From NCBI GenBank assembly GCA_016866785.1, contig VGLH01000002.1, forward strand, positions 14,086 through 78,085: a DNA stretch of 64,000 bases. The letters run 5' to 3'. The position numbers and the translations under genes were made by a program. Below the pieces are notes generated by a model. That model saw only the letters and a program-made list of their open reading frames with translations. It was not told the origin of the DNA and did no database searches. Below, one piece after another: positions 9,560 to 49,895 of this stretch (positions are counted from its first letter, which is position 1; each line of letters starts with the position of its first letter). Source of the DNA: Candidatus Poribacteria bacterium. GTDB lineage: Bacteria > Poribacteria > WGA-4E > GCA-2687025.

Positions 9560-10431
9560 AGCAGCGCCCGCAGGTAGTCCACGGACGCCTTCGTCGCCGC
9601 CGAGTATTCCTCGTCGGTCAGAACGCCGCCACCGTGGTCTTGGATGAACTTGAGCTGCGACGCGGGACCCTCCGCCGAGTCGTCGGCGCGTGTCCCAGCG
9701 AGAATCGTCCGTTCGACGGGGTTGACGAACTCGACCGTGAGGTGCCCTTCGTAGCCGACCGACTTGAGCGTGTCCACGATGTCCCTCCAGTTCACGTGCC
9801 CCAGACCCGGAGGCTTCCGGTTGCTGTCGGCGACGTGAAAGTCGAGGAGGCGCTTGCCCAGAGAGCGGATCGTCGCCAGCGAATCCTCTTCCTCGATGTT
9901 CATGTGGAAGGCGTCGACGCAGATGCCGATGTCCTCCCCGATGGCGTCCGCGAGGGCGACCGCCTGCTCGCCACGGTTGATGAAGTAGGTCTCGAACCGG
10001 TTGATCGGCTCGATGGCGATCTGGACACCGAGCTTGCGGGCGACGTCGGCGACACGCTTCATGCCATCGACCGCCCACTCCCATTCCTGCTCGATGGAGG
10101 CGTCCGGAGCCGTCTTTCCGACCGTCGCCGGCACGGTCGTCATGATCTGACCGCCCAGACCGGCGACCATGCGGATACAGTCCTGCAGGTAGAGGATCGT
10201 TCCCTCGCGGAGGTACTTGTCAGCGAGTGTGAGTCCCCGTCCTTCCGTCATGATCGAAACGGAACCTCGGCACGTGATCCCGTGCTTTTCGAGGGTCTTG
10301 CGCGTCTCGTCGATGGGGTACAGCTCCGGTTCGCCGCTGATCTCGATGGCGTCGTAGCCGAAGCGCGCCAACCGCTCGACGGTCTGTTCGAGCGGCTCGG
10401 GTCGCATCCAGTTGTGCATCCCGATCTTCAT
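9556..10431 (-). CDS. sugar phosphate isomerase/epimerase (xylose isomerase-like TIM barrel)
   Basis: MKIGMHNW... N-terminus and xylose-isomerase-like TIM signature (FGYDAIEISGE). Start chosen at the internal ATG 10431 with an upstream GGAGGAG; the longer R-rich extension was rejected. Confidence 0.8.
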   Translation of the reverse strand: MKIGMHNWMRPEPLEQTVERLARFGYDAIEISGEPELYPIDETRKTLEKHGITCRGSVSIMTEGRGLTLADKYLREGTILYLQDCIRMVAGLGGQIMTTVPATVGKTAPDASIEQEWEWAVDGMKRVADVARKLGVQIAIEPINRFETYFINRGEQAVALADAIGEDIGICVDAFHMNIEEEDSLATIRSLGKRLLDFHVADSNRKPPGLGHVNWRDIVDTLKSVGYEGHLTVEFVNPVERTILAGTRADDSAEGPASQLKFIQDHGGGVLTDEEYSAATKASVDYLRALL

Positions 10432-39442: not shown

Positions 39443-41350
39443 ATGGGCAAAGTCATAGGGATCGATCTGGGAACGACGAACTCGTGCGTGGCGATCATGG
39501 AGAACGGCAAGCCCGTTGTCGTCGCCAACTCGGAAGGTGCGCGCACAACGCCCTCGGTCGTGGCGTTCACCAAGGACGGTGAGCGGCTCGTGGGCCAGGC
39601 GGCGAAACGACAGGCAGTGACAAATCCCAAGAACACCGTGTTTTCGATCAAGCGATTCATGGGACGCAACTACAACGAGGTCACCAACGAACTCGCCCAG
39701 TTCCCGTACGAGGCGGTCCGCGCCGACAGCGGCGGGGTCAAAGTGCGCGCGGCCGGAAAGGAGTACACACCGCCCGAAGTCTCCGCGATGGTGCTCCAGA
39801 AGATGAAGCAGACCGCGGAGGACTACCTCGGCGAGCCGGTCACGCAGGCAGTCGTCACGGTGCCAGCCTACTTCAACGACGCGCAGCGACAGGCGACGAA
39901 GGATGCGGGCAGGATCGCCGGGCTCGACGTCCTGCGAATCATCAACGAGCCGACGGCGGCATCGCTCGCCTACGGCCTCGAGAAGAAGAAGGACGAACGC
40001 ATCGCCGTCTTCGACCTCGGCGGCGGGACGTTCGACATCTCGATCCTTGAGATCGGCGACGGCGTCTTCGAGGTGAAGTCGACCAACGGCGACACCCACC
40101 TGGGCGGCGATGATTTCGACCAGGTCATCATCAACTGGCTCGCCGACGAGTTCAAGCGCGACAACGGGATCGACCTGCGCAAGGACACGATGGCGCTTCA
40201 GCGACTCAAGGAAGCCGCTGAGAAGGCGAAGATCGAACTCTCCAGCTCGATGTCCACCGACATCAATCTGCCGTTCATCACAGCAGACGCCAGCGGACCC
40301 AAGCACCTGAACGTACCGCTGTCGCGCGCCAAGCTGGAACAACTCACCGAGGAACTGATCAACCGGACGCTCGAGCCGTGCCGCAAGGCGCTTGCCGACG
40401 CCAAGGTGACGGCAAACGGCATCGACGAGGTCGTCCTCGTCGGCGGCATGACGCGCATGCCCAAGATCCAGCAGGTGGTACGGGAGTTCTTCGGCAAGGA
40501 GGCGCACAAGGGCGTCAATCCCGACGAGGTCGTTGCGGTCGGAGCGGCTGTCCAGGGCGCGGTGCTCAGCGGTGACGAAGGCGTCAAGGACGTCCTGCTG
40601 CTCGACGTAACGCCGCTTTCGCTCGGGATCGAAACGCTTGGCGGCGTGATGACCAAACTCATCGAGCGCAACACGACGATTCCGACGCGGCGGAACCAAG
40701 TGTTCACGACCGCCGAGGATGGTCAGACGAGCGTCGATATCCACGTGCTTCAGGGCGAACGCGAGATGGCTGCCTACAACAAGACGATCGGCAGGTTCCG
40801 TCTCGACGGCATCCCACCGGCTCCTCGAGGCGTGCCGCAGGTCGATGTGACGTTCGATATCGACGCGAACGGCATCCTCAACGTCTCGGCAAAAGACACG
40901 GCGACCGGCAAGGAGCAGAAGATCACGATCACGGCTTCGTCCGGGCTCAGCGAGCAAGAGATCAATCAGATGGTCAAGGACGCCGAGTCCCACGCCGACG
41001 AAGATCGCGCCAAGCGCGAGGAAGTGGATACGCGCAATCGTGGCGAGCAGCTTGCCTATCAGACCGAGAAGCAGCTCAAGGAGTTCGAAGGCAAGCTGTC
41101 GGATGACGTGAAGGGAACCGTCGAGACGACTCTCAAGACCCTCAAGGAGACGCTCGAAGGTGGCTCGACGGCAGCCATCAAGTCGGCGACCGAGGAGCTC
41201 CAGCAGGCGTGGTATCAGGCATCGGCGACGCTCTATCAGCAGGCGGGGGCTCCGGGCGATGGCGGAGCCGAGCAGGCTGCTGGCGGCAACGGAGCCGACG
41301 ACGACGTGATCGACGCGGACTACGAAGTCGTCGACGACGACAAGAAGTAG
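39443..41350 (+). CDS. dnaK: molecular chaperone DnaK (Hsp70)
   Basis: [35 protein letters not shown] and the rest of the canonical Hsp70 signature. 635 aa. Confidence 0.97.
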
Positions 41351-41400: not shown

Positions 41401-42101
41401 TCATCGCTTGAGGCGCCGCCGCCGAACGACCGCCACGATGACCAGGTACGCGACTGCAGCCATACCGGCGACCGTAGAGCCTCCGAGGAGACCGTGCCCG
41501 AACCGCGGATCAGCCGAAGCGCCTTGCGCGACCAGACGCGACGCGTACCCGAAGTACGTGTAGGCGGGACGCCGGGTACCATGGCAACCGCTGAAGCCGC
41601 AGCATAGGGCAGGAACCGTATCGGCGTCAGTCCAAAGGCGTAGTTCAGCAAGCCGAATGGAAAGAGCGGCACCAGGCGCACGACCACCACGTACTTCCAG
41701 CCGTCCTGCTCTATGCCCGACCATACGACGCGCGCGCGCGATCCCAGCGCTCGATCGAACCAGTCGCCAGCGGCATGTCGCGCGATCAGGAAGCTCACGC
41801 TGGACGCCACCATGGCGCTCGCCAGTGTCAGCGACGCACCGACCGTCACGCCGAACACGTAGCCACCGGCGAGCGTCAGCGGGATACCGGGCAGCGCCAT
41901 CGCCGCGATGAATACGTACGCAGCGCAATACGCGAGGAGCGCCCAGCTTCCCATCTTGGAGAGTCGCGCAGCCAGCGCGTCGGAACCGACCTCATGGCGT
42001 AGGAGCCAGAAGCCTCCGATGGCGACCGCCAGCCAGGCGACGACGGCCAGGGCGCGTCGCAGCGCCACACCGCGTGACGCCTGTCTCTGGCGACCTCTCA
42101 T
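41401..42101 (-). pseudogene. TVP38/TMEM64 (DedA-like) family membrane protein, apparent -1 frameshift near 41557-41570
   Basis: N-terminal ~180 aa in one frame (MRGRQRQ...RLVPLFPFGLLNYAFGLTPIRF...AMVPG). The conserved C-terminal TM segment (AYTYFGYASRLVAQGA...MAAVAYLVIVAVVRRRRLKR*) continues in another frame ending at 41401. Read-through in the first frame gives an R/P-rich junk tail that overlaps dnaK. Confidence 0.5.
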
Positions 42102-42868
42102 GAGCTCGTGGGTTTCCGCGCGGTGATGTTGATGCGGTCGGAGTTGCCGTGGTAGCGCGAGAACGTCCAGGCGTCGAACGCGCTCAGGTAGTCGAACCCG
42201 CGCTCGACCAATATGCCCTTGATCTCCGGGACTTCGAAGATCCTCTGGATGTGCGTCTCGACGTGTCGCTCGAACAATCCATCCGGGCGCGCGATGAAGA
42301 ACGTGAGCTCGGTGCAGCAGGTGGCGTCGTGGCGAGAGTAGACGTTCTTCCAGACGTAGGAGTATCTCGGCTCGTTCTCGGCGAACGTGTTCATGTGGAA
42401 GTGCTCGACGATGTTCCGCTCCGTGGTCACATCGAACGCGAACAAACCGCCTGGCTTGAGAACACGCCACACGCAATCGACCACTTGGCGGAGCTCGCGC
42501 GCGTCGCGCGCGTAGTTGATGCTGTCGTAAAGGCACAGGACGGCATCGAAGGGCTCCCCGAACGAGAAGTCACGCATGTCGCCCTGCACCCACTCGACCG
42601 TGACGCCGCGCTGGCGTGCCTTGTCCGCGCCGACATTCATCATCTCCTGAGCGCGGTCGAGCCCCACGACCTCGAATCCACGCTCAGCCAGCGGCACGGC
42701 GACCGAGCCCGTCCCGCACGCCAGGTCCAGCAGCCGTCTGGGCTTGACTTCGTAGTGCCGGAAGAGATCGATCACGTAGTCCACCCACCGACGGTAGTTG
42801 ACGTTGGACATTATCTCGTCGTAGGCGTACGCGAACCGGCTGTATGGCACGACGTCCGACACGCGCAT
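42098..42868 (-). CDS. class I SAM-dependent methyltransferase
   Basis: Motif I LLDLACGTGSVAVPLAERG and motif II region DAVLCLYDSINY. Stop overlaps the downstream TVP38 start (ATGA). Start uncertain (42868 or 42976). Confidence 0.7.
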   Translation of the reverse strand: MRVSDVVPYSRFAYAYDEIMSNVNYRRWVDYVIDLFRHYEVKPRRLLDLACGTGSVAVPLAERGFEVVGLDRAQEMMNVGADKARQRGVTVEWVQGDMRDFSFGEPFDAVLCLYDSINYARDARELRQVVDCVWRVLKPGGLFAFDVTTERNIVEHFHMNTFAENEPRYSYVWKNVYSRHDATCCTELTFFIARPDGLFERHVETHIQRIFEVPEIKGILVERGFDYLSAFDAWTFSRYHGNSDRINITARKPTSS

Positions 42869-42890: not shown

Positions 42891-43823
42891 TCAGGAACCC
42901 AAGGGAATGTCACGCAGCACCAGCCACGCCAACGATCCGCAGGCTTGGACGATGCTCGCCACAATCCCCGGCACAAGCGAGCGAGAGCGCACGAACAGGT
43001 ATCCGTTCGCCGCTCCCAGCGCTACGAGAGGCACAAACGACAGAGCCGATCCGGACGCCACCGCAAACGCCACGGCGGCTCCCCACACCGATAGATGGAC
43101 TGTGCGTTTCTGACGCAGCATCCGAAGCAGCATGCCTCGGAAGAAGATCTCGCTCCCGAGGGGTCCCAGCGCGAGCACCGTCGGGAGAATCAGCACCCAC
43201 AGCGGGTCAGATGTCTGCGTCGGAAACAGTTGAAGCACCTGTTGACGCTCCTCGCGCAGCACCGGCACGAGCGACGCCGCCAGCTCGAACAACTCCCCAA
43301 ACGCGAATACCGCCGCGCCGGCTCCGACCCCCATCACGAGTGCGCCGCGCAGATCGTCTGTGTGGAGCCCGATGTCCTCGAGCGACCAGCGGAACCTTCC
43401 GTTCAACATCCAGATGCACAGGACGGCGAAGAGCGCCGACTTCAACAGCTCGAGCGACCAGAGGATGTCCGGGGCAAGGAGCGCTTGCAGCGTGCGCGGC
43501 TCGGACGTATCGGTCGGGAGCTTGCCCATGGCCGTCAAGACGACCATCCCGACCATGAAGCTGATGACCCACGACACGAAGAAGATGGCGACGAGGTCGC
43601 GCGCGCGCCAATCGGCACGTGTTCGCCGAGGCATCTCCTCGCGAGCGATCATCAACTCGCAGTGGCTGCACTGACGAGTGTCCACGGGGTTGTGCCCGTC
43701 GCATCGCGGACACCGCCAGTAATACGGTGGCGGAACCCGCCAGACAAAGAACGGGAGACCCAGCACGCCGGCAGTCACGACGAAGAGCAAGCCCTGAAAG
43801 ATGCTTTGGGCGATCGCGTCCAT
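42891..43823 (-). CDS. CPBP family intramembrane metalloprotease (CAAX protease/Abi-like) with N-terminal zinc ribbon
   Basis: N-terminal CPRCDGHN...CSHC. Multiple TM helices. EIFFRGML (EExxFRG-type) and ANGYLF motifs. Confidence 0.7.
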   Translation of the reverse strand: MDAIAQSIFQGLLFVVTAGVLGLPFFVWRVPPPYYWRCPRCDGHNPVDTRQCSHCELMIAREEMPRRTRADWRARDLVAIFFVSWVISFMVGMVVLTAMGKLPTDTSEPRTLQALLAPDILWSLELLKSALFAVLCIWMLNGRFRWSLEDIGLHTDDLRGALVMGVGAGAAVFAFGELFELAASLVPVLREERQQVLQLFPTQTSDPLWVLILPTVLALGPLGSEIFFRGMLLRMLRQKRTVHLSVWGAAVAFAVASGSALSFVPLVALGAANGYLFVRSRSLVPGIVASIVQACGSLAWLVLRDIPLGS

Positions 43824-43916: not shown

Positions 43917-44834
43917 CTACGACAGACGCGCCTGGATGCCGGTCTGCTCCGCGAGACGGAGGAGGCTCGCCAGGCGCTCTGGAGACTGGGTTCCGCCGGA
44001 CACGGTGTAGGGCATTCCGAGCCATTCGTACTTGGCTCCGGCTGAGGCGTTGTAGGGCAGGAAGGAGATGGCAGTCAGACCTGTATCTCGCATGAAGTCC
44101 AGGATTCCGACTACGTTCTCGTCAGTGTCCGTCACCGATGGAATCAGCGGAACGCGAATCTCGACGTTTCGTCCCGCGAGGCGGCGCGCGTTCTCGAGGA
44201 TTCGCCGGTTCGATGCGCCGGTCCATGACCGGTGCGCCTCGTCATCGATGAGCTTGAGGTCGTAGAGCACGAGGTCGGTGTGTTCGAGCACTCGCGCCAA
44301 CGGCTCCCAGGCGGACATGCCGCATGTCTCGATGGCGGTATGGATGCCGCGCTCTCGGCAGCCTTGGGCGATCGCCGCAGCGAACGCGTGCTGCAGCGTG
44401 ACCTCGCCGCCGGTCAGTGTGATGCCGCCGCCGGAATGATGGAAGAAAGCCTTCATCCGCGACGCCTGATCGATGACCGCGCCCGCTGTGGTCTCGTACC
44501 CCTTGATGGCGACCGCCTGGTTCTGGCACACGGAGACGCACCGCCCGCAGGCGTCGCAACTCTCCCAGTGGACGTGGTGCTGCTCGTCTGCGACCTCGTG
44601 AACGTCGTTGGGGCAGACTTCGGCGCATGCCCCGCAGAACGCGCAACGGCTCCCGGCGAACACGAGCTCGGGGTCGGCGTCCTGCGACTCCGGGCTGTGG
44701 CACCATGCACACGTCAGCGGACAGCCTTTGAGATAGACCGCCATGCGCACGCCGGGACCGTCGTGCACGGCGAACGTATCGACGTCGAACACGACGCCAC
44801 GGACTTCGCCCGAGGTTCCAGACGGATCGGTCAT
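43917..44834 (-). CDS. glycyl-radical enzyme activating protein (radical SAM, PFL2-type with two extra 4Fe-4S motifs)
   Basis: CPLTCAWC (CxxxCxxC) radical-SAM motif. CAFCGACAEVCP and CDACGRCVSVC ferredoxin motifs. Start overlaps the GRE stop (ATGA at 44831-44834). Confidence 0.85.
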   Translation of the reverse strand: MTDPSGTSGEVRGVVFDVDTFAVHDGPGVRMAVYLKGCPLTCAWCHSPESQDADPELVFAGSRCAFCGACAEVCPNDVHEVADEQHHVHWESCDACGRCVSVCQNQAVAIKGYETTAGAVIDQASRMKAFFHHSGGGITLTGGEVTLQHAFAAAIAQGCRERGIHTAIETCGMSAWEPLARVLEHTDLVLYDLKLIDDEAHRSWTGASNRRILENARRLAGRNVEIRVPLIPSVTDTDENVVGILDFMRDTGLTAISFLPYNASAGAKYEWLGMPYTVSGGTQSPERLASLLRLAEQTGIQARLS

Positions 44835-47140
44835 GACCGACCCTCCTGGCGGCGGATGTGGTGATCCTGTTGCTCGCGGCTGAGCATCGTGAAGTAGGCG
44901 CACCATCCTCCCATGCGAACGCGAAGGGAGCGGTACCGGTCCGGGTCGCGTTGAGCCGCGCGGAGCTCCTCCGTGTCGGCGACGGTGAGCGTCATCATCG
45001 CGCCGCCTGCATCGACGAACCCGCGCACCAGCCCGGACATGCGCGTCGTGCCCTCCTCTCCAGCCACCAGATGCCGCGCCACTCGCAGGTCGATGGGACC
45101 GCCGGCAGGCAGGTTCTCGTGGTGCATCTTGGAGTAGGACAGGATCGCGGCGGTCAAGCCGGCAGCATCGCGTCCGAGCGCCGGTGAGAAGTTGCTCGCG
45201 ACGGGTTCCCCGGATCGACGACCATCGGGCGACGCGCCCAGTCCTTCGCCGATCCCGATGTACCACGAGAACGTGCCGACGCCGCATGGAAAGCGGATCA
45301 GCGAGGCGTGAGACACCGCGTGCCGCGCCACGGCATTGGTGAAGGCGTCGATGACCTGTCGTCCCATCGCGTCGGCGACCGGGTCATCGTTCCCGTACTT
45401 CGGCGCGGCAATGAGCTTGGCGCGCAGCGGTCCCCAGCCCTCGAAGTCCACGTCTAAAGCGTCGCACAGCTCAGTCATCGACGCCTCGCGCCGCTCGAAG
45501 ACGGTCTGTCGGATCGCCGTCAGGGAATCGATGGCGTGCGACGCGCTCTCGGCGAGCATACCGAACGTGCGATAGCGGGCTCCGCCCGCCGTGAGATCGC
45601 GGCGGCTTTCGACGGCTCCTTCGATCAGGGCGCTCAGCAGTGGCACGGGCGCGATGGTCGATCGGTTATCGACGGTCGAAGCCACGCGCTGGACGACGTA
45701 GCCGACCATCGCGTCGATCTGCTCCTCGAACGCTTGCCACACGTCGTCGAAGGACGAGAAACGACGCGGATCGCCTGGATCGGGTCCGTGCGTGCCCGGA
45801 GGCGGGTCGCCCTCGCCTCGTCGATGGTTCCCTCGGTTCAGCGCCCTCTCGAGGCATAGCATCAGGCTCAGACGCTGGAACCGGAAGTCGGTCCGCCCGG
45901 GGATGATCACTTCCCAGCAGCCGTCGTTCGTGTAGTCGCGCGCGTCGGGCTGGTCGATCCCGATGCGCATGAGAGCCGGAACTAGCGCTTCGTCGTTGAA
46001 GAACGCCGGCATTCCGCCACCGTCCTTCAGCACTTCGCACGACGCGCGGATGAGTTCCTCCGGCGACCGCCGGTGGACGCGCACCGTAAGCAGCGGATTC
46101 GTCATCCGGTTCCGTCGGTAGCTCTCCAGCAGCAAGAACGTGAGTGGATTCGTGCCGTCGTCGCCGTTCGGCGTCACGCCGCCGACGATGATGTTCTGCA
46201 GCCAGTGGTTTGTGGCATCGACGCTGTCGCGACGGGTTCCGCGCTGGGAGGATGTGTCGTGCCGCGTCTTGCTGCTTGGGCCCTTGGGCTCATCCTCGCG
46301 CGCCTCAGGGCGTTGATCGTCGGTCGTCTTGGCTCGCTCGTTGAACTTCAGCGTGAAGCAGTCGACGAGCTCCGCGCCAAAGCCGAGGTCGATGGTTCCC
46401 TGCGTGAGATCTGTCTCGAGGTAGGGAGCGGCGTACTGGTCGAGACGCCCGACGGCGTTCCCGTTCATGGTCGAGTGGAAGATCATGTGGAGCAGCCACA
46501 CGCTCTGCAGCGCCTGCCAGAACGTCTGGGCTGGTTCGCTGGGAACCTGCCGCAGATTCGCCGCCATGGTGCGAAGCTCGACGCGGCGCTCCAGCGTCAG
46601 GTCAGCGCGTTCGGCTTCGGAGTCACAGCGCTGCGACAGCCGATCGGCGAAATCGCAGACAGCGTCGCACGCGATTTCCACCGACCGAAGAAAGGCGAGT
46701 TCGTCTTGGGTCCGTGCCGACGTCGCTTGGCGCCGGGCGTCTTCGGCGATGGCGCGGAGCCCCCTGCCGAGCAGGCGAGGGTAGTCCGGGACGATGTGAC
46801 CAAAGACCGAATGGATGCTCAGTCCCCGGCTGGATGCCGCAGCCTTCTCCTCGGGAGTCACGTAGTCTGGGAACCCGCGTTCGGCGTGGATGCGTGGGTT
46901 CTCGAGCGTCATCGATCCGGCGATGAGCTGATCGTCCCACAGATCGGTCGGCATCGCCTCCAGCTTGGCGCAAATCGCGAGCGCCTTTCGGACCGCCAAT
47001 GGCTCCGACATGTGCGCCTCGTCGATGCGAGGTGGGCAGCGGAACTCGGCGGGAGGCTGCTCCATGGCGTCGCGGACGCGGCGACGCAGCGACTCCACGC
47101 GAGGCGTGCTGGGCAGCTTGCGGATCACATCGGCGTTCAT
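44831..47140 (-). CDS. glycyl radical enzyme, PFL2/glycerol-dehydratase-like family, substrate unknown
   Basis: Start at ATG 47140 with GAGGAGAG upstream. Cys loop NDGCWEV. C-terminal Gly loop RVRMGGWCAYF aligned to canonical RVAGYSAFF. ~770 aa. Confidence 0.8.
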   Translation of the reverse strand: MNADVIRKLPSTPRVESLRRRVRDAMEQPPAEFRCPPRIDEAHMSEPLAVRKALAICAKLEAMPTDLWDDQLIAGSMTLENPRIHAERGFPDYVTPEEKAAASSRGLSIHSVFGHIVPDYPRLLGRGLRAIAEDARRQATSARTQDELAFLRSVEIACDAVCDFADRLSQRCDSEAERADLTLERRVELRTMAANLRQVPSEPAQTFWQALQSVWLLHMIFHSTMNGNAVGRLDQYAAPYLETDLTQGTIDLGFGAELVDCFTLKFNERAKTTDDQRPEAREDEPKGPSSKTRHDTSSQRGTRRDSVDATNHWLQNIIVGGVTPNGDDGTNPLTFLLLESYRRNRMTNPLLTVRVHRRSPEELIRASCEVLKDGGGMPAFFNDEALVPALMRIGIDQPDARDYTNDGCWEVIIPGRTDFRFQRLSLMLCLERALNRGNHRRGEGDPPPGTHGPDPGDPRRFSSFDDVWQAFEEQIDAMVGYVVQRVASTVDNRSTIAPVPLLSALIEGAVESRRDLTAGGARYRTFGMLAESASHAIDSLTAIRQTVFERREASMTELCDALDVDFEGWGPLRAKLIAAPKYGNDDPVADAMGRQVIDAFTNAVARHAVSHASLIRFPCGVGTFSWYIGIGEGLGASPDGRRSGEPVASNFSPALGRDAAGLTAAILSYSKMHHENLPAGGPIDLRVARHLVAGEEGTTRMSGLVRGFVDAGGAMMTLTVADTEELRAAQRDPDRYRSLRVRMGGWCAYFTMLSREQQDHHIRRQEGRS

Positions 47141-47438
47141 CGTCGGACTCTCCTCTCGCCGACTCGGCTGAAAACCGAGCCCCGGGTCATCGCTCCACAG
47201 TCGCCGTCGAGCCCTTGTCGCTCCGTGTCCGGTGGCTCTCAGATGCCATGGGCCCAATCGATTCCACTGGGACAAAGGACGGAAGCGCGGGTTGGCGCGT
47301 CGCCTGCCCGCATCCGGCGCACGGCATATGGGAGCCCTTCCGGCTTCGAACCCCCTGGGCAATGAGCGCCACCACAGCCGCGCTCACCGTGGCGAACGCA
47401 GCGGCTTCCTGCCACATGAGCCGCCTCCTCTCGACCGC

Positions 47439-49634
47439 CTAGACCAGCGCCGTCGTCACCGCCTTCGCGATGAACGCTGCAGCATAGGCAAGGACAGCCA
47501 TATAGCTCCACGCGAACACGGGCCAGCGCCACGAGCCCGTCTCACGCCAGATCGTCGCCACGGTAGACATGCACTGCAGCGCGATCACATAGAACACCAG
47601 CAGCGACACGACCACCGGCAACGTGAACACGGGATTCCCGGCGTGCGGACCCAACTGCCAGGTGGCAGACCGGAGACGATCTGCCAGCGGCGAAGTGTCC
47701 TCGGTCACATCGCCGACGCTGTAGATCGTTCCGAGCGTGCTGACGAACACCTCTCTGGCGGCAAACGACGACAAGATGCCGATGCCGATCCTCCAGTCGA
47801 AGCCCAGCGGCGAGATGACCGGTTCCATCAGGCTTCCCAGTCTACCTGCGAAGCTGACGCGCAGCATGGCGGACGCCTCTTCCGCTTCCAGCGACGCGAG
47901 TTGCTCGTCTACGTCGAACGCTTGTTCGGCGGCGATCAGATCGCGACGCGACGCGTACTCGCCCGCGATGACCGGCGACTTGGGATAGGATGCCAGGAAC
48001 CACATGATCACAGACACGCTCAGGATCACGGTTCCAGCCCGTTGAAGGAACATCCGCGCGCGGTCCCACATGTTCAGCAGAACCGACCGGATGTTCGGCA
48101 GTCGATAGGGAGGCAGTTCCAGAATCAGCGCCGGTGTTTCGCTGCGGAAAAGCGTCTTCTTCAGAAGCAGCGCGACACCGATGGCGATGACGACGCCAGC
48201 CGCGTAGAGGGTTCCCAAGACCAACGCCTTCGTCATCGCAGACCCCGCGATGAAAGTCGCGATGATGAGCGTATAGACAGGCAGGCGAGCGCTGCAGGTC
48301 ATTAGCGGCGCGACGAGGATCGTGACGAACCGGTCCTTCCGGTTCTCGATGGTCCGAGTCGCCATGATGCCCGGCACGGCGCACGCGAACGAGCTCAGGA
48401 GGGGGATGAACGCCTTGCCGTGCAAGCCCACGCGCCGCATCAGCCGGTCCATCATGAACGCGGCGCGCGCCATGTAGCCGGTGTCTTCCAGCAACCCGAT
48501 GAAAAGAAACAGAAACAGAATCTGGGGCAGGAAGATGACCACGGAACCGACTCCGGCGACGACGCCATCCACGAGCAGGTCTCGGAAGGGCCCGGGACCC
48601 ATGCGAGACGACAACGCCGCTGCGAGGGCGGTCATTCCTCGGTCGATCCAATCCATCGGAACGGCAGCCCATGCGAAGATCGCCTGAAAGACCAGACCCA
48701 TCAGGATGAGAAACGTCAACGGGCCGGCGACTCGATGGGTCAGGATCGCATCGGCGCGGTCGCTGCGGCTGGGTCGGGTCGCGTCACGGCGTTGCACGCA
48801 ATCCCGGGTGATCCCCCGAATCCAGCGATATCTGGCTTCCGCCTCGAAGGCTTCCGGGTCGAACCCCTCGGCAGTCAGCGTGGAGCGTCCCGTCTCTATG
48901 GCGCTGCGTAACGCTTCCGACGTCGGACGTCCCCAGACCTCCCCGACGGACACAGCGCCTAGACACCGAATGGCTTCGGCGTCGGCCTGTGCCGTCGTGT
49001 ATCCTCGATCCGACCGGAGGAGAGCGGCGACCTCGGCGATAGCGCGTTCCGCCCCTTCGGAGAGTCTCCATCGCCTTTCGGGCGGAACCGGGGGATCGCC
49101 GGACGCCAGAAGCGACAGGAGACCGTCGATTCCGATTCCTCTGCTGGCGCACATCGGCACGACGGGAACGCCGAGCCTGCGAGACAACTCCGGGGCGTCG
49201 ATGACAACGCCTGAACGCTCCGCCACGTCGATCATGTTCAGCGCGATGATCGTCGGCGCCCCCAGGTCGAGCACCTGTCCGGCAAGATATAGGTTGCGGT
49301 CGAGGTTGCTGGCATCGACGACGACGACAACGACGGTCGTTCGCGGCGTGTCTTTCGCTTCGCCCAGGATAACGGTCCGCGCGATGCGTTCCTCGGGCGA
49401 ACGGACGGTGAGGCTGTATGTCCCCGGAAGGTCGAGGACGTCGTGGAGGGCAGTTCCGAGCTGGAGGATACCCATCTTGCGCTCGACGGTGACGCCAGGG
49501 TAGTTGCCCACCTTCTGGCGCAGCCCAGTCAGCGCGTTGAAGAGCGTGGTCTTACCGGAGTTCGGGTTGCCAGCAAGCGCGATAACGTGCTTGGAAGACG
49601 CGGCGGCGACTGCGCCCGCAGCGGCCTGCCTCAT
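47439..49634 (-). CDS. feoB: ferrous iron transport protein B
   Basis: N-terminal GTPase (ALAGNPNSGKTTLFNALTG) followed by a polytopic membrane domain. 731 aa. Confidence 0.9.
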   Translation of the reverse strand: MRQAAAGAVAAASSKHVIALAGNPNSGKTTLFNALTGLRQKVGNYPGVTVERKMGILQLGTALHDVLDLPGTYSLTVRSPEERIARTVILGEAKDTPRTTVVVVVVDASNLDRNLYLAGQVLDLGAPTIIALNMIDVAERSGVVIDAPELSRRLGVPVVPMCASRGIGIDGLLSLLASGDPPVPPERRWRLSEGAERAIAEVAALLRSDRGYTTAQADAEAIRCLGAVSVGEVWGRPTSEALRSAIETGRSTLTAEGFDPEAFEAEARYRWIRGITRDCVQRRDATRPSRSDRADAILTHRVAGPLTFLILMGLVFQAIFAWAAVPMDWIDRGMTALAAALSSRMGPGPFRDLLVDGVVAGVGSVVIFLPQILFLFLFIGLLEDTGYMARAAFMMDRLMRRVGLHGKAFIPLLSSFACAVPGIMATRTIENRKDRFVTILVAPLMTCSARLPVYTLIIATFIAGSAMTKALVLGTLYAAGVVIAIGVALLLKKTLFRSETPALILELPPYRLPNIRSVLLNMWDRARMFLQRAGTVILSVSVIMWFLASYPKSPVIAGEYASRRDLIAAEQAFDVDEQLASLEAEEASAMLRVSFAGRLGSLMEPVISPLGFDWRIGIGILSSFAAREVFVSTLGTIYSVGDVTEDTSPLADRLRSATWQLGPHAGNPVFTLPVVVSLLVFYVIALQCMSTVATIWRETGSWRWPVFAWSYMAVLAYAAAFIAKAVTTALV

Positions 49635-49652: not shown

Positions 49653-49895
49653 CTACTGCGCTACGCGGAAGCCTTCGCGCTCGACGTCGATGTAAGAGGC
49701 TTCGTGCTTGCGCAGCGAAAGGTGGTATCCACTAACCAGCAGTTCGATCGGGTCGCCGAACGGCGCGTACTTCAGCAGCTTGACGGGCTCGCCGCGAAGG
49801 AGTCCCATCTCCATGAGCCGCGTTCTGACCGAGGGCTCTCCGCCCACTCGGACGATGGTTGCCGATTCCCCGGGCTTGAGTTGAGAGAGAGTCAT
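49653..49895 (-). CDS. feoA: FeoA family protein
   Basis: 80-aa SH3-like FeoA sequence (MTLSQLKPGESATIVRV...GDPIEL). Ends 18 nt upstream of feoB. Confidence 0.75.
   Translation of the reverse strand: MTLSQLKPGESATIVRVGGEPSVRTRLMEMGLLRGEPVKLLKYAPFGDPIELLVSGYHLSLRKHEASYIDVEREGFRVAQ

Follow-up and report, generated by a model that had tools for sequence, protein, structure and literature searches.

Glycyl radical enzymes (GREs) perform chemically difficult anaerobic reactions and, to our knowledge, each newly characterized GRE clade has so far brought to light new metabolism (for example choline to trimethylamine, hydroxyproline, sulfonates, and anhydro-sugars). Here we analyze a GRE that is encoded on the minus strand of a 64,000-nucleotide stretch of DNA from a Candidatus Poribacteria bacterium (assembly GCA_016866785.1, contig VGLH01000002.1, positions 14,086 to 78,085; this whole stretch is referred to as the window). 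With a probability of roughly 0.6, we consider it to be a functional GRE of the pyruvate formate-lyase (PFL) 2 / 1,2-eliminase-isomerase structural class, which belongs to a large subfamily without a characterized member found and in which an insertion ahead of strand β3 most likely rebuilds the substrate pocket.

A review from 2026 lists characterized eliminases, isomerases, decarboxylases, succinate synthases, and lyases among the GREs, and entire clades remain unvalidated (PMC13450708). The hallmark of the GRE 1,2-eliminases and isomerases is a Cys-X-Glu (CXE) motif, whose Glu hydrogen-bonds or deprotonates the substrate hydroxyl. His164 of glycerol dehydratase (GD) is the proposed acid for the leaving hydroxyl, and a conserved cap helix between strands β2 and β3 forms part of the substrate channel (PMC13450708). 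In the trans-4-hydroxy-L-proline dehydratase HypD, Ser334 on the short β2-β3 helix, Asp339, and Phe340 are essential or make contact with the substrate, and His160 is essential (PMC7077986). The C-S lyases IslA, IseG, and HpsG and the isomerases YbiW, PflD, and HplG perform CXE chemistry on hydroxylated anionic substrates, and in IslA and HpsG two Arg residues and a Gln hold the sulfonate in place (PMC13450708). The function of the PFL2 of A. fulgidus (2f3o) is disputed or unassigned (PMC13450708). The published GRE fingerprint, RVxG[FWY]x6-8[FL]x4Qx2[IV]x2R, permits a Trp after the radical Gly (PMC13450708, PMC11528403), and in relatives of the GREs Ala, Ser, or Thr at the radical position still support radical formation (PMC11528403).

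Features of the Poribacteria GRE and comparison with described enzymes

The GRE gene, its catalytic landmarks, and the gene of the activating enzyme, a radical S-adenosylmethionine (SAM) protein, were located at the following positions of the window.

44831..47140, minus strand: GRE coding sequence, 769 amino acids, start ATG at 47140, with the Pfam domains PF02901 and PF01228
46796..46798, minus strand: H115, counterpart of GD His164 (GHIVPDY aligned to GHVSVDY)
46271..46330, minus strand: N-terminal half of the insertion, K271-S290, an acidic variable linker after the cap-helix region
46202..46270, minus strand: C-terminal half of the insertion, K291-W313, with the conserved motif [RK]TRHxTSSQxGxxRDxxDATNHW, running into strand β3
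45911..45928, minus strand: Cys loop N405-D-G-C408-W-E410, aligned to GCVE of GD and CutC
44849..44917, minus strand: glycyl radical fingerprint R742-R764, RMGGWCAYFTMLSREQQDHHIRR, aligned to RVAGYSAQF...R of GD, CutC, and 2f3o
44906-44908, minus strand: predicted radical glycine G745, opposite GD G763 in the HMMER alignment
43917..44834, minus strand: GRE-activating radical SAM enzyme (activase), 305 amino acids, whose ATG overlaps the GRE stop codon (ATGA)

The gene product is a member of the PFL-like GRE superfamily. It matched the PFL-like barrel domain PF02901 (1.1e-127, 427.8 bits, cutoff 24.3) and the C-terminal glycine radical domain PF01228 (6.5e-14, 52.8 bits, cutoff 22.2), and is 100% identical to the NCBI entry 'hypothetical protein FJZ36_00660 [Candidatus Poribacteria bacterium]'. 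The AlphaFold2 (AF2) model of the protein, with a predicted local distance difference test (pLDDT) score of 87 and a predicted template modeling (pTM) score of 0.91, has a template modeling (TM) score of ~0.8 to PFL2-type GREs, namely 1,2-propanediol dehydratase (PD), GD, CutC, HypD, and HplG. The gene is contained in a longer minus-strand open reading frame (ORF; 44831..47362), whose mechanical call reaches a TTG at 47362. ATG 47140 is the likeliest GRE start because it is preceded by AGGAG and because close homologues begin there, and the 74-residue stretch encoded between the TTG and this ATG (47141-47362) is probably not translated.

The GRE resembles the B12-independent GD of C. butyricum (1r8w) and the GRE-type PD (9rco, 5i2g), with which it shares the 10-stranded barrel (TM ~0.8), the arrangement of the Gly and Cys loops, the CXE motif, the His164 counterpart, and a neighboring activase with ferredoxin domain. 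Unlike in these dehydratases, to which it is ~26% identical, the segment ahead of β3 comprises 46 instead of 19 residues, and the two loops read RMGGWCA and GCWE instead of RVAGYSA and GCVE. Moreover, GD positions 281, 282, 447, and 640 (H, S, D, and Y), which we take to be substrate-binding residues, correspond to N228, A229, Q422, and G622 in our GRE, and this presumed diol-binding set is not retained.

HypD (6vxc) shares the fold and the CXE motif, and the β2-β3 element that, with the start of β3, contributes to substrate binding in HypD is the same element that is expanded in our GRE. In contrast to HypD, the position that matches Asp339 by spacing is occupied by W313, so that this Asp is not conserved, and no proline-metabolism genes were found near the GRE in the neighborhoods examined. 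With A. fulgidus PFL2 the GRE has in common the Trp after the radical Gly (RVAGWSAYF in 2f3o), but 2f3o is without the insertion (the HMMER alignment breaks at query residues 271-315), has a GCVE Cys loop, and carries Ala-Gly in place of Gly-Gly. The C-S lyases IslA, IseG, and HpsG and the isomerases YbiW, PflD, and HplG also have the CXE motif, but their anchoring residues are located on other strands, the respective NCBIfam equivalogs fail, and the scores of the GRE to these enzymes (E 1e-65 to 1e-79) were no better than those to other eliminases. Finally, a non-canonical radical loop, an occurrence mostly in metagenome-assembled genomes (MAGs), and an adjacent activase are also features of the aminoacyl radical enzymes (AAREs; Fu et al. 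2024, PMC11528403). Those enzymes have swapped the radical Gly for Ala, Ser, or Thr, whereas our GRE retains a Gly at this position (G745) and only the flanks differ.

Radical loop and active-site residues

In HMMER alignments with CutC, A. fulgidus PFL2, and GD, the segment R-V-A-G-Y-S-A was placed opposite R742-M743-G744-G745-W746-C747-A748. Based on this register to the solved GREs, the canonical Arg is predicted to be R742 and not R740, and the radical Gly to be G745. An initial annotation of this DNA, whose quoted strings and coordinates were exact and whose residue numbers fit the start at ATG 47140, had described the loop as divergent. The exchanges of Y to W and S to C and the Gly-Gly are real, but the 'RV' in its register (RVRMGGW, nt 44923-44903) precedes the canonical Arg-Val by two residues. 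Compared with the PFL2-type RVAGYSAFF, the GRE loop RMGGWCAYF shows the changes V to M, A to G, Y to W, and S to C. A canonical RV[SA]GY motif (RVSGY or RVAGY), the presence of which would have contradicted that description, occurs neither elsewhere in the GRE protein nor in any frame of the 64-kb window.

The strict form of the published fingerprint is not matched by the GRE. Of the eight positions that the fingerprint specifies, the GRE agrees at six (R, G, W, L, Q, and R) and departs at two, with M743 in place of V and H761 in place of [IV]. The divergence of the loop nevertheless appears modest, since Trp is allowed after the radical Gly and is seen in 2f3o, and since Gly-Gly, Trp, and Cys can each be found on occasion in unrelated lineages in the alignment of family representatives; only the combination of these changes seems to be specific for the clade. 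Among the 120 nearest homologues, which are 66–74% identical to the GRE, RVRMGGWCAYF was found in 117, and the mean conservation of residues 738-753 was 0.997. RMGGWC is thus best read as the clade's own version of the fingerprint and not as a defect.

The alignments further identified C408 and E410 as the counterparts of GD C433 and E435, respectively. C408 is accordingly the predicted catalytic Cys, and G-C408-W-E410 contains the CXE motif of the GRE 1,2-eliminases and isomerases (class as defined in PMC13450708). The NDGCWE sequence of this TNDGCWE-type loop is present in 119 of the 120 homologues and throughout the superclade described below. H115 is invariant in the clade and, judged from family-wide conservation, probably also corresponds to HypD His160. 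As far as can be read from these residues, the catalytic apparatus of the GRE is intact.

An expanded and conserved segment ahead of strand β3

The insertion follows the helices between β2 and β3 and is framed by FTLKFNE (nt 46357-46337) and WLQNIIVGG (46204-46178), with KTTDDQ beginning at 46330. Segment lengths were read from 128 aligned full-length representatives of the family. The pre-β3 segment (query residues 269-314) comprises 46 residues in our GRE and 19 residues in canonical GD/CutC/HypD-like sequences, which corresponds to an extension by 27 residues; in the remaining lineages outside the superclade its length is 3–24 residues. The loop had initially been noted as about 15–20 residues longer than expected, which was right as to the expansion but too low as to its size. 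The same annotation had called the loop highly charged and low-complexity. It does contain 9 acidic residues, 9 basic residues, and 2 His among 42 residues, but with 3.48 bits (8th percentile of the 42-residue windows of the protein) its composition is only mildly biased, and the term low-complexity is misleading because the C-terminal half of the insertion is highly conserved.

The mean conservation across the 120 homologues was 0.81 for the whole protein, 0.68 for residues 271-290, and 0.90 for residues 291-313. Twelve residues within the insertion are invariant among the clade homologues, and 11 of these are located in the C-terminal half (H294, S297, S298, Q299, R304, D305, D308, T310, N311, H312, and W313). 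The homologues share the insertion as well as the radical loop: the 46-residue spacing across the insertion is exact in 110 of the 120, and the length variants fall in the N-terminal half. One homologue (P0032) carries a partial internal duplication in the insertion, with the NHWLQ motif occurring twice and a spacing of 61 residues, and another one (P0027) has 8 additional residues in the variable half. Judged from these two variants, only the variable part and its immediate surroundings accommodate changes in length.

The insertion ends at L314, which stands 94 residues ahead of the catalytic Cys; HypD Phe340 and GD residue 339 have the same spacing to theirs. Since the same element in HypD supplies residues that contact the substrate or are essential, the C-terminal half of the insertion most likely reshapes the substrate pocket or the mouth of the channel, whereas the N-terminal half is probably a surface linker. 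Across the superclade, the specificity positions 228/229 and 422/423 vary in step with the sequence of the insertion.

Alternatively, the insertion could be a surface element that serves oligomerization, activase docking, partner binding, or solubility while the specificity is set elsewhere, which we regard as somewhat unlikely. Such a role would be in line with the variable, acidic, and length-tolerant N-terminal half, with the insertions of similar length and unrelated sequence in the outer superclade, and with the AF2 model, in which the insertion has pLDDT values of 58–72 and is mostly coil except for a short helix (residues 303-306) that holds the invariant R304-D305. It is harder to reconcile with a C-terminal half that is conserved above the protein average, contains the 11 invariant residues, and runs into the β3 residues matching the essential HypD Asp339 and Phe340, and with an insertion whose sequence varies in concert with other pocket positions within the superclade. 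A remodeled substrate pocket is therefore the interpretation that we prefer.

Position of the GRE within the family

When 1.84 billion representatives were searched exhaustively with HMMER, 6158 GRE relatives were obtained. At 50% clustering, the core clade consists of a single representative, which is surrounded by a superclade of ~25 representatives with identities of 29–46%. Members of this 'GG / GCWE / long-loop' superclade share R-[VML]-G-G-[WFL], N-D-G-C-W-E, and a pre-β3 segment of 31–73 residues, and most of them have an N-H-W-[LG]-Q-N motif entering β3. Further characteristics of the core clade are Cys747, N228-A229, Q422-R423, and an [RK]TRHxTSSQ motif. Canonical RVAGY/GCVE enzymes start at ~34–36% identity. 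The ten superclade representatives that were sampled, including that of the core clade, are environmental and generically named, and no characterized member was found in the superclade. In addition, the clade was not described in the literature that we searched on GREs in the phyla listed below, on GREs in combination with aminotransferases or phosphonate, and on recent GRE work.

The GRE remained below the cutoffs of the functional models to which it was compared. Its scores were 427.4 bits (cutoff 678.2) for the PFL2/glycerol dehydratase subfamily model TIGR01774, 332.8 bits (1100) for the HypD model NF043068, 316.9 (1050), 339.6 (1000), and 318.1 (1000) for the CutC, HpsG, and HpfG equivalogs, respectively, 293.5 bits (1109) for the E. 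coli PflD-type model NF007437, and 75 bits (994.2) for the PFL model TIGR01255; the decarboxylase equivalog cutoffs were not reached either. Foldseek and AF2 superposition showed 22–27% identity to all solved PFL2-type GREs with no clear favorite. Both the 120 homologues and the superclade combine the radical motif with the GCWE Cys loop and the insertion. These sequence features and the scores below TIGR01774 and the equivalogs support a distinct subfamily, as the initial annotation had suspected, and this subfamily is part of the deeper superclade. An insertion common to a known clade would have spoken against this reading; the clade that carries it is large, but it is not a characterized one.

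It is quite unlikely that the GRE is an ordinary known eliminase, such as a glycerol or propanediol dehydratase, or a PFL, with its differences being neutral lineage decoration. Homologues are indeed labeled 'pyruvate formate lyase family protein' or 'formate C-acetyltransferase' in the databases, the best Foldseek matches are propanediol and glycerol dehydratases, and the CXE motif and the His164 counterpart are kept. However, every functional model including that of the PFL2 subfamily failed by a wide margin, the low identity to the solved GREs singles out none of them, and the four GD positions mentioned above carry N, A, Q, and G. Moreover, a PFL would carry two adjacent Cys instead of CXE, whereas the Cys loop of our GRE reads GCWE.

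The clade signature R-M-G-G-W-C, N-D-G-C-W-E, and RTRHxTSSQ...NHW could be used to annotate these proteins apart from 'pyruvate formate-lyase'. The clade also offers a natural test of how far the radical-loop fingerprint can vary, and of whether the cap helix-β3 element can expand for new specificity. We regard it as a well-defined variant of a known enzyme kind that is of moderate interest, its chief value being that of a target for function discovery and of a basis for better annotation; the practical payoff hinges on the identification of the substrate.

Distribution and selection

A scan of GTDB with one genome per species revealed 146 species genomes that encode a relative, and in metagenomes the clade comprises hundreds of clusters. 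Taxonomy and MAG status were taken from 80 retrieved loci, all of which (80/80) originate from MAGs. These loci are affiliated with Poribacteria, Anaerolineae/Chloroflexota, Armatimonadota, Planctomycetota (Phycisphaerae and Brocadiia), Latescibacterota, Sumerlaeota, and Hebobacteria, and Bacillota relatives with 42–50% identity are also among them. As far as sampled, the clade is known only from uncultured environmental lineages. One Anaerolineae MAG (contig JAXGPZ010000001.1, loci L056 and L058) encodes two core-clade GREs, which are ~380 kb apart and show 64% and 63% identity to the GRE of the window.

Compared with 65 loci, the divergence at codon positions 1/2/3 was 0.25/0.21/0.54 for the whole GRE gene and 0.24/0.17/0.49 for residues 291-313. 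The gene, including the C-terminal half of the insertion, is under purifying selection. That the GRE is a decaying or non-functional relic with a radical loop unable to support activation, as also considered in the initial annotation, is highly improbable: the loop fits neither the strict RVxG fingerprint nor the PROSITE-style pattern and the Pfam Gly_radical score is modest (52.8 bits), but the 769-codon ORF and the translationally coupled activase are intact, none of the catalytic Gly, Cys, Glu, and His is missing, the loop shows hardly any variation among 120 homologues from several phyla, the codon-position pattern reflects purifying selection even within the insertion, and in relatives even Ala, Ser, or Thr at the radical position support radical formation (PMC11528403).

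Activase and recurrent neighbors of the homologous loci

The activase encoded downstream of the GRE scored 299.7 bits against TIGR02494 (cutoff 174) and contains CPLTCAWC (CX3CX2C) and two CX2CX2CX3C ferredoxin-like motifs. An activase is also adjacent to the GRE in 73 of the 84 loci examined. A class-V aminotransferase is located directly upstream and on the same strand in 12 of these 84 loci; 13 loci contain one or two FAD oxidoreductases of the PF12831 family, eight an enolase-superfamily orthogroup, and six a metallo-β-lactamase (MBL)-fold hydrolase. The Bacillota loci add an AraC regulator, a major facilitator superfamily (MFS) transporter, a sugar ATP-binding cassette (ABC) transporter, and a GH95 fucosidase.

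The aminotransferase copies are 75–93% identical among the core loci across phyla and 50–54% identical to the Bacillota copies, and judged from these values they are true orthologues whose divergence parallels that of the GRE. They are of the AGXT type, with a match of 3e-117 (395 bits) to the alanine-glyoxylate aminotransferase 1vjo compared with 4.5e-35 (~125 bits) to PhnW. A C-P lyase reaction on 2-aminoethylphosphonate or hydroxyethylphosphonate was considered for the GRE and dropped, because the aminotransferase is far nearer to AGXT than to PhnW and no conserved reductase is located nearby. No solved relative was found for the PF12831 flavoprotein, a literature search on the PDB codes of the nearest enolase-superfamily structures returned nothing relevant, and bacterial microcompartment shell proteins were absent from all neighborhood tables examined.

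Three further arrangements were observed among the related loci. In four loci (L004 11240-11833, L031, L048, and L083), a hemerythrin-domain gene is located just downstream of the activase on the opposite strand, which might serve to sense oxygen or to protect an O2-sensitive enzyme in hosts other than strict anaerobes. In an outer-superclade locus (L087, 5606-11693), two GRE paralogues flank one activase, an atypical arrangement that has been described for threonyl radical enzymes (PMC11528403). Another outer-superclade GRE with 45% identity (L086, 10332-15004) is encoded beside an IclR regulator, an aldehyde dehydrogenase, and the Dak1/Dak2 dihydroxyacetone kinase subunits, which suggests a reaction yielding an aldehyde or a triose in that branch.

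Proposed reaction and substrate

Superfamily membership, the set of catalytic residues, conservation across the clade, the place of the insertion in the sequence, and the linkage of the genes were observed, and from these the reaction class, the role of the insertion, and the nature of the substrate are inferred. The mechanism proposed here follows the GRE family paradigm. The co-translated activase would put a radical on G745, from where it would move to C408. The C408 thiyl radical would then take a hydrogen from the carbon bearing, or beside, a hydroxyl, and E410 of the CXE motif, aided by H115, would handle the hydroxyl proton. Upon loss of a vicinal leaving group (C-O, C-N, or C-S), C408 would give the hydrogen back. 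The invariant basic and polar residues in the C-terminal half of the insertion (R/K291, R293, H294, S297, S298, Q299, R304, D305, N311, H312, and W313) would recognize an anionic group.

The substrate is probably anionic and hydroxylated. Its anionic nature is suggested by the Arg, His, Ser, and Gln of the insertion together with the invariant R416 and R423 near the Cys loop, by analogy with the anchor of IslA and HpsG. The AGXT-type aminotransferase, enolase-superfamily, and PF12831 neighbors and the sugar genes of the Bacillota loci hint weakly at a small hydroxy acid, keto acid, amino acid, or sugar acid from carbohydrate catabolism. As a possible but tentative extension, the GRE may catalyze an undescribed reaction, the radical elimination or isomerization of a small anionic hydroxy-acid, amino-acid, or sugar-acid recognized via the insertion, within a horizontally mobile catabolic module with the co-diverging AGXT-type aminotransferase, the enolase-superfamily enzyme, and PF12831 flavoproteins in uncultured polysaccharide degraders of low-oxygen niches. 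If true, these degraders would be the Poribacteria, Planctomycetota, Armatimonadota, and Chloroflexota, and the whole 'GG / GCWE / long-loop' superclade would represent a new functional GRE class.

Several observations weigh against a functional eliminase or isomerase with a rebuilt pocket and against the assumed substrate. A CXE motif on its own is no proof of eliminase chemistry, the idea of an anionic substrate is derived from conserved Arg, His, Ser, and Gln and from the analogy with IslA and HpsG, and the proposed proximity of the insertion to C408 is based on its position in the sequence. The pLDDT is ~60–70 in the N-terminal half of the insertion, and the range of 58–72 given above applies to the Gly loop as well. 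Furthermore, only ~30% of the well-flanked loci carry any recurrent neighbor and most of the 84 GRE-activase pairs stand alone, and the aminotransferase, flavoprotein, enolase-superfamily, and MBL genes had no significant tblastn match within the 64 kb of the window. With the recurrent neighbors missing here and present in only a minority of loci elsewhere, the gene context says little about this genome.

Neighboring genes in the window

The gene order in the window is FeoA-FeoB, a 76-residue ORF, GRE, activase, an Rce1-like protease, and a methyltransferase, and the window's own genes around the GRE-activase pair are not conserved beside the homologues.

~49653-49895, minus strand: FeoA, upstream of the GRE, pairs with FeoB
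47439-49634, minus strand: FeoB, immediately upstream of the GRE
47187-47417, minus strand: 76-amino-acid ORF, located between the genes of FeoB and the GRE and annotated as a gene in public assemblies
42891-43823, minus strand: Rce1-like CPBP intramembrane protease, downstream of the activase, with the N-terminal CxxC...CxxC zinc-ribbon-like motif CPRCDGHNPVDTRQCSHC
~42098-42862: SAM methyltransferase, beyond the protease
39443-41350, plus strand: DnaK (Hsp70)

The adjacency of FeoAB and the GRE is probably coincidental, because FeoAB is absent among the recurrent neighbor clusters of the other loci, although Feo and the activase both relate to anaerobic iron use. The 76-residue ORF had tblastn matches only in contigs of the same genome (L001 and L002) and in 0 of 85 related loci, and is possibly spurious or lineage-specific. 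Scanning the window for tRNAs, Rfam families, and tandem repeats gave no hits or only trivial ones. Weak tblastn matches in the window were to common GFO-type dehydrogenases and to the TIM-barrel/AP_endonuc_2 neighbor (c25), the latter at 9688-10392.

Owing to the high G+C content, many long spurious ORFs occur on both strands in the GRE region. The mechanically called activase ORF starts 151 codons too far upstream (44835-45287, minus strand), inside the GRE. The DnaK gene explains why the AT skew is high in the 40-42 kb composition bin.

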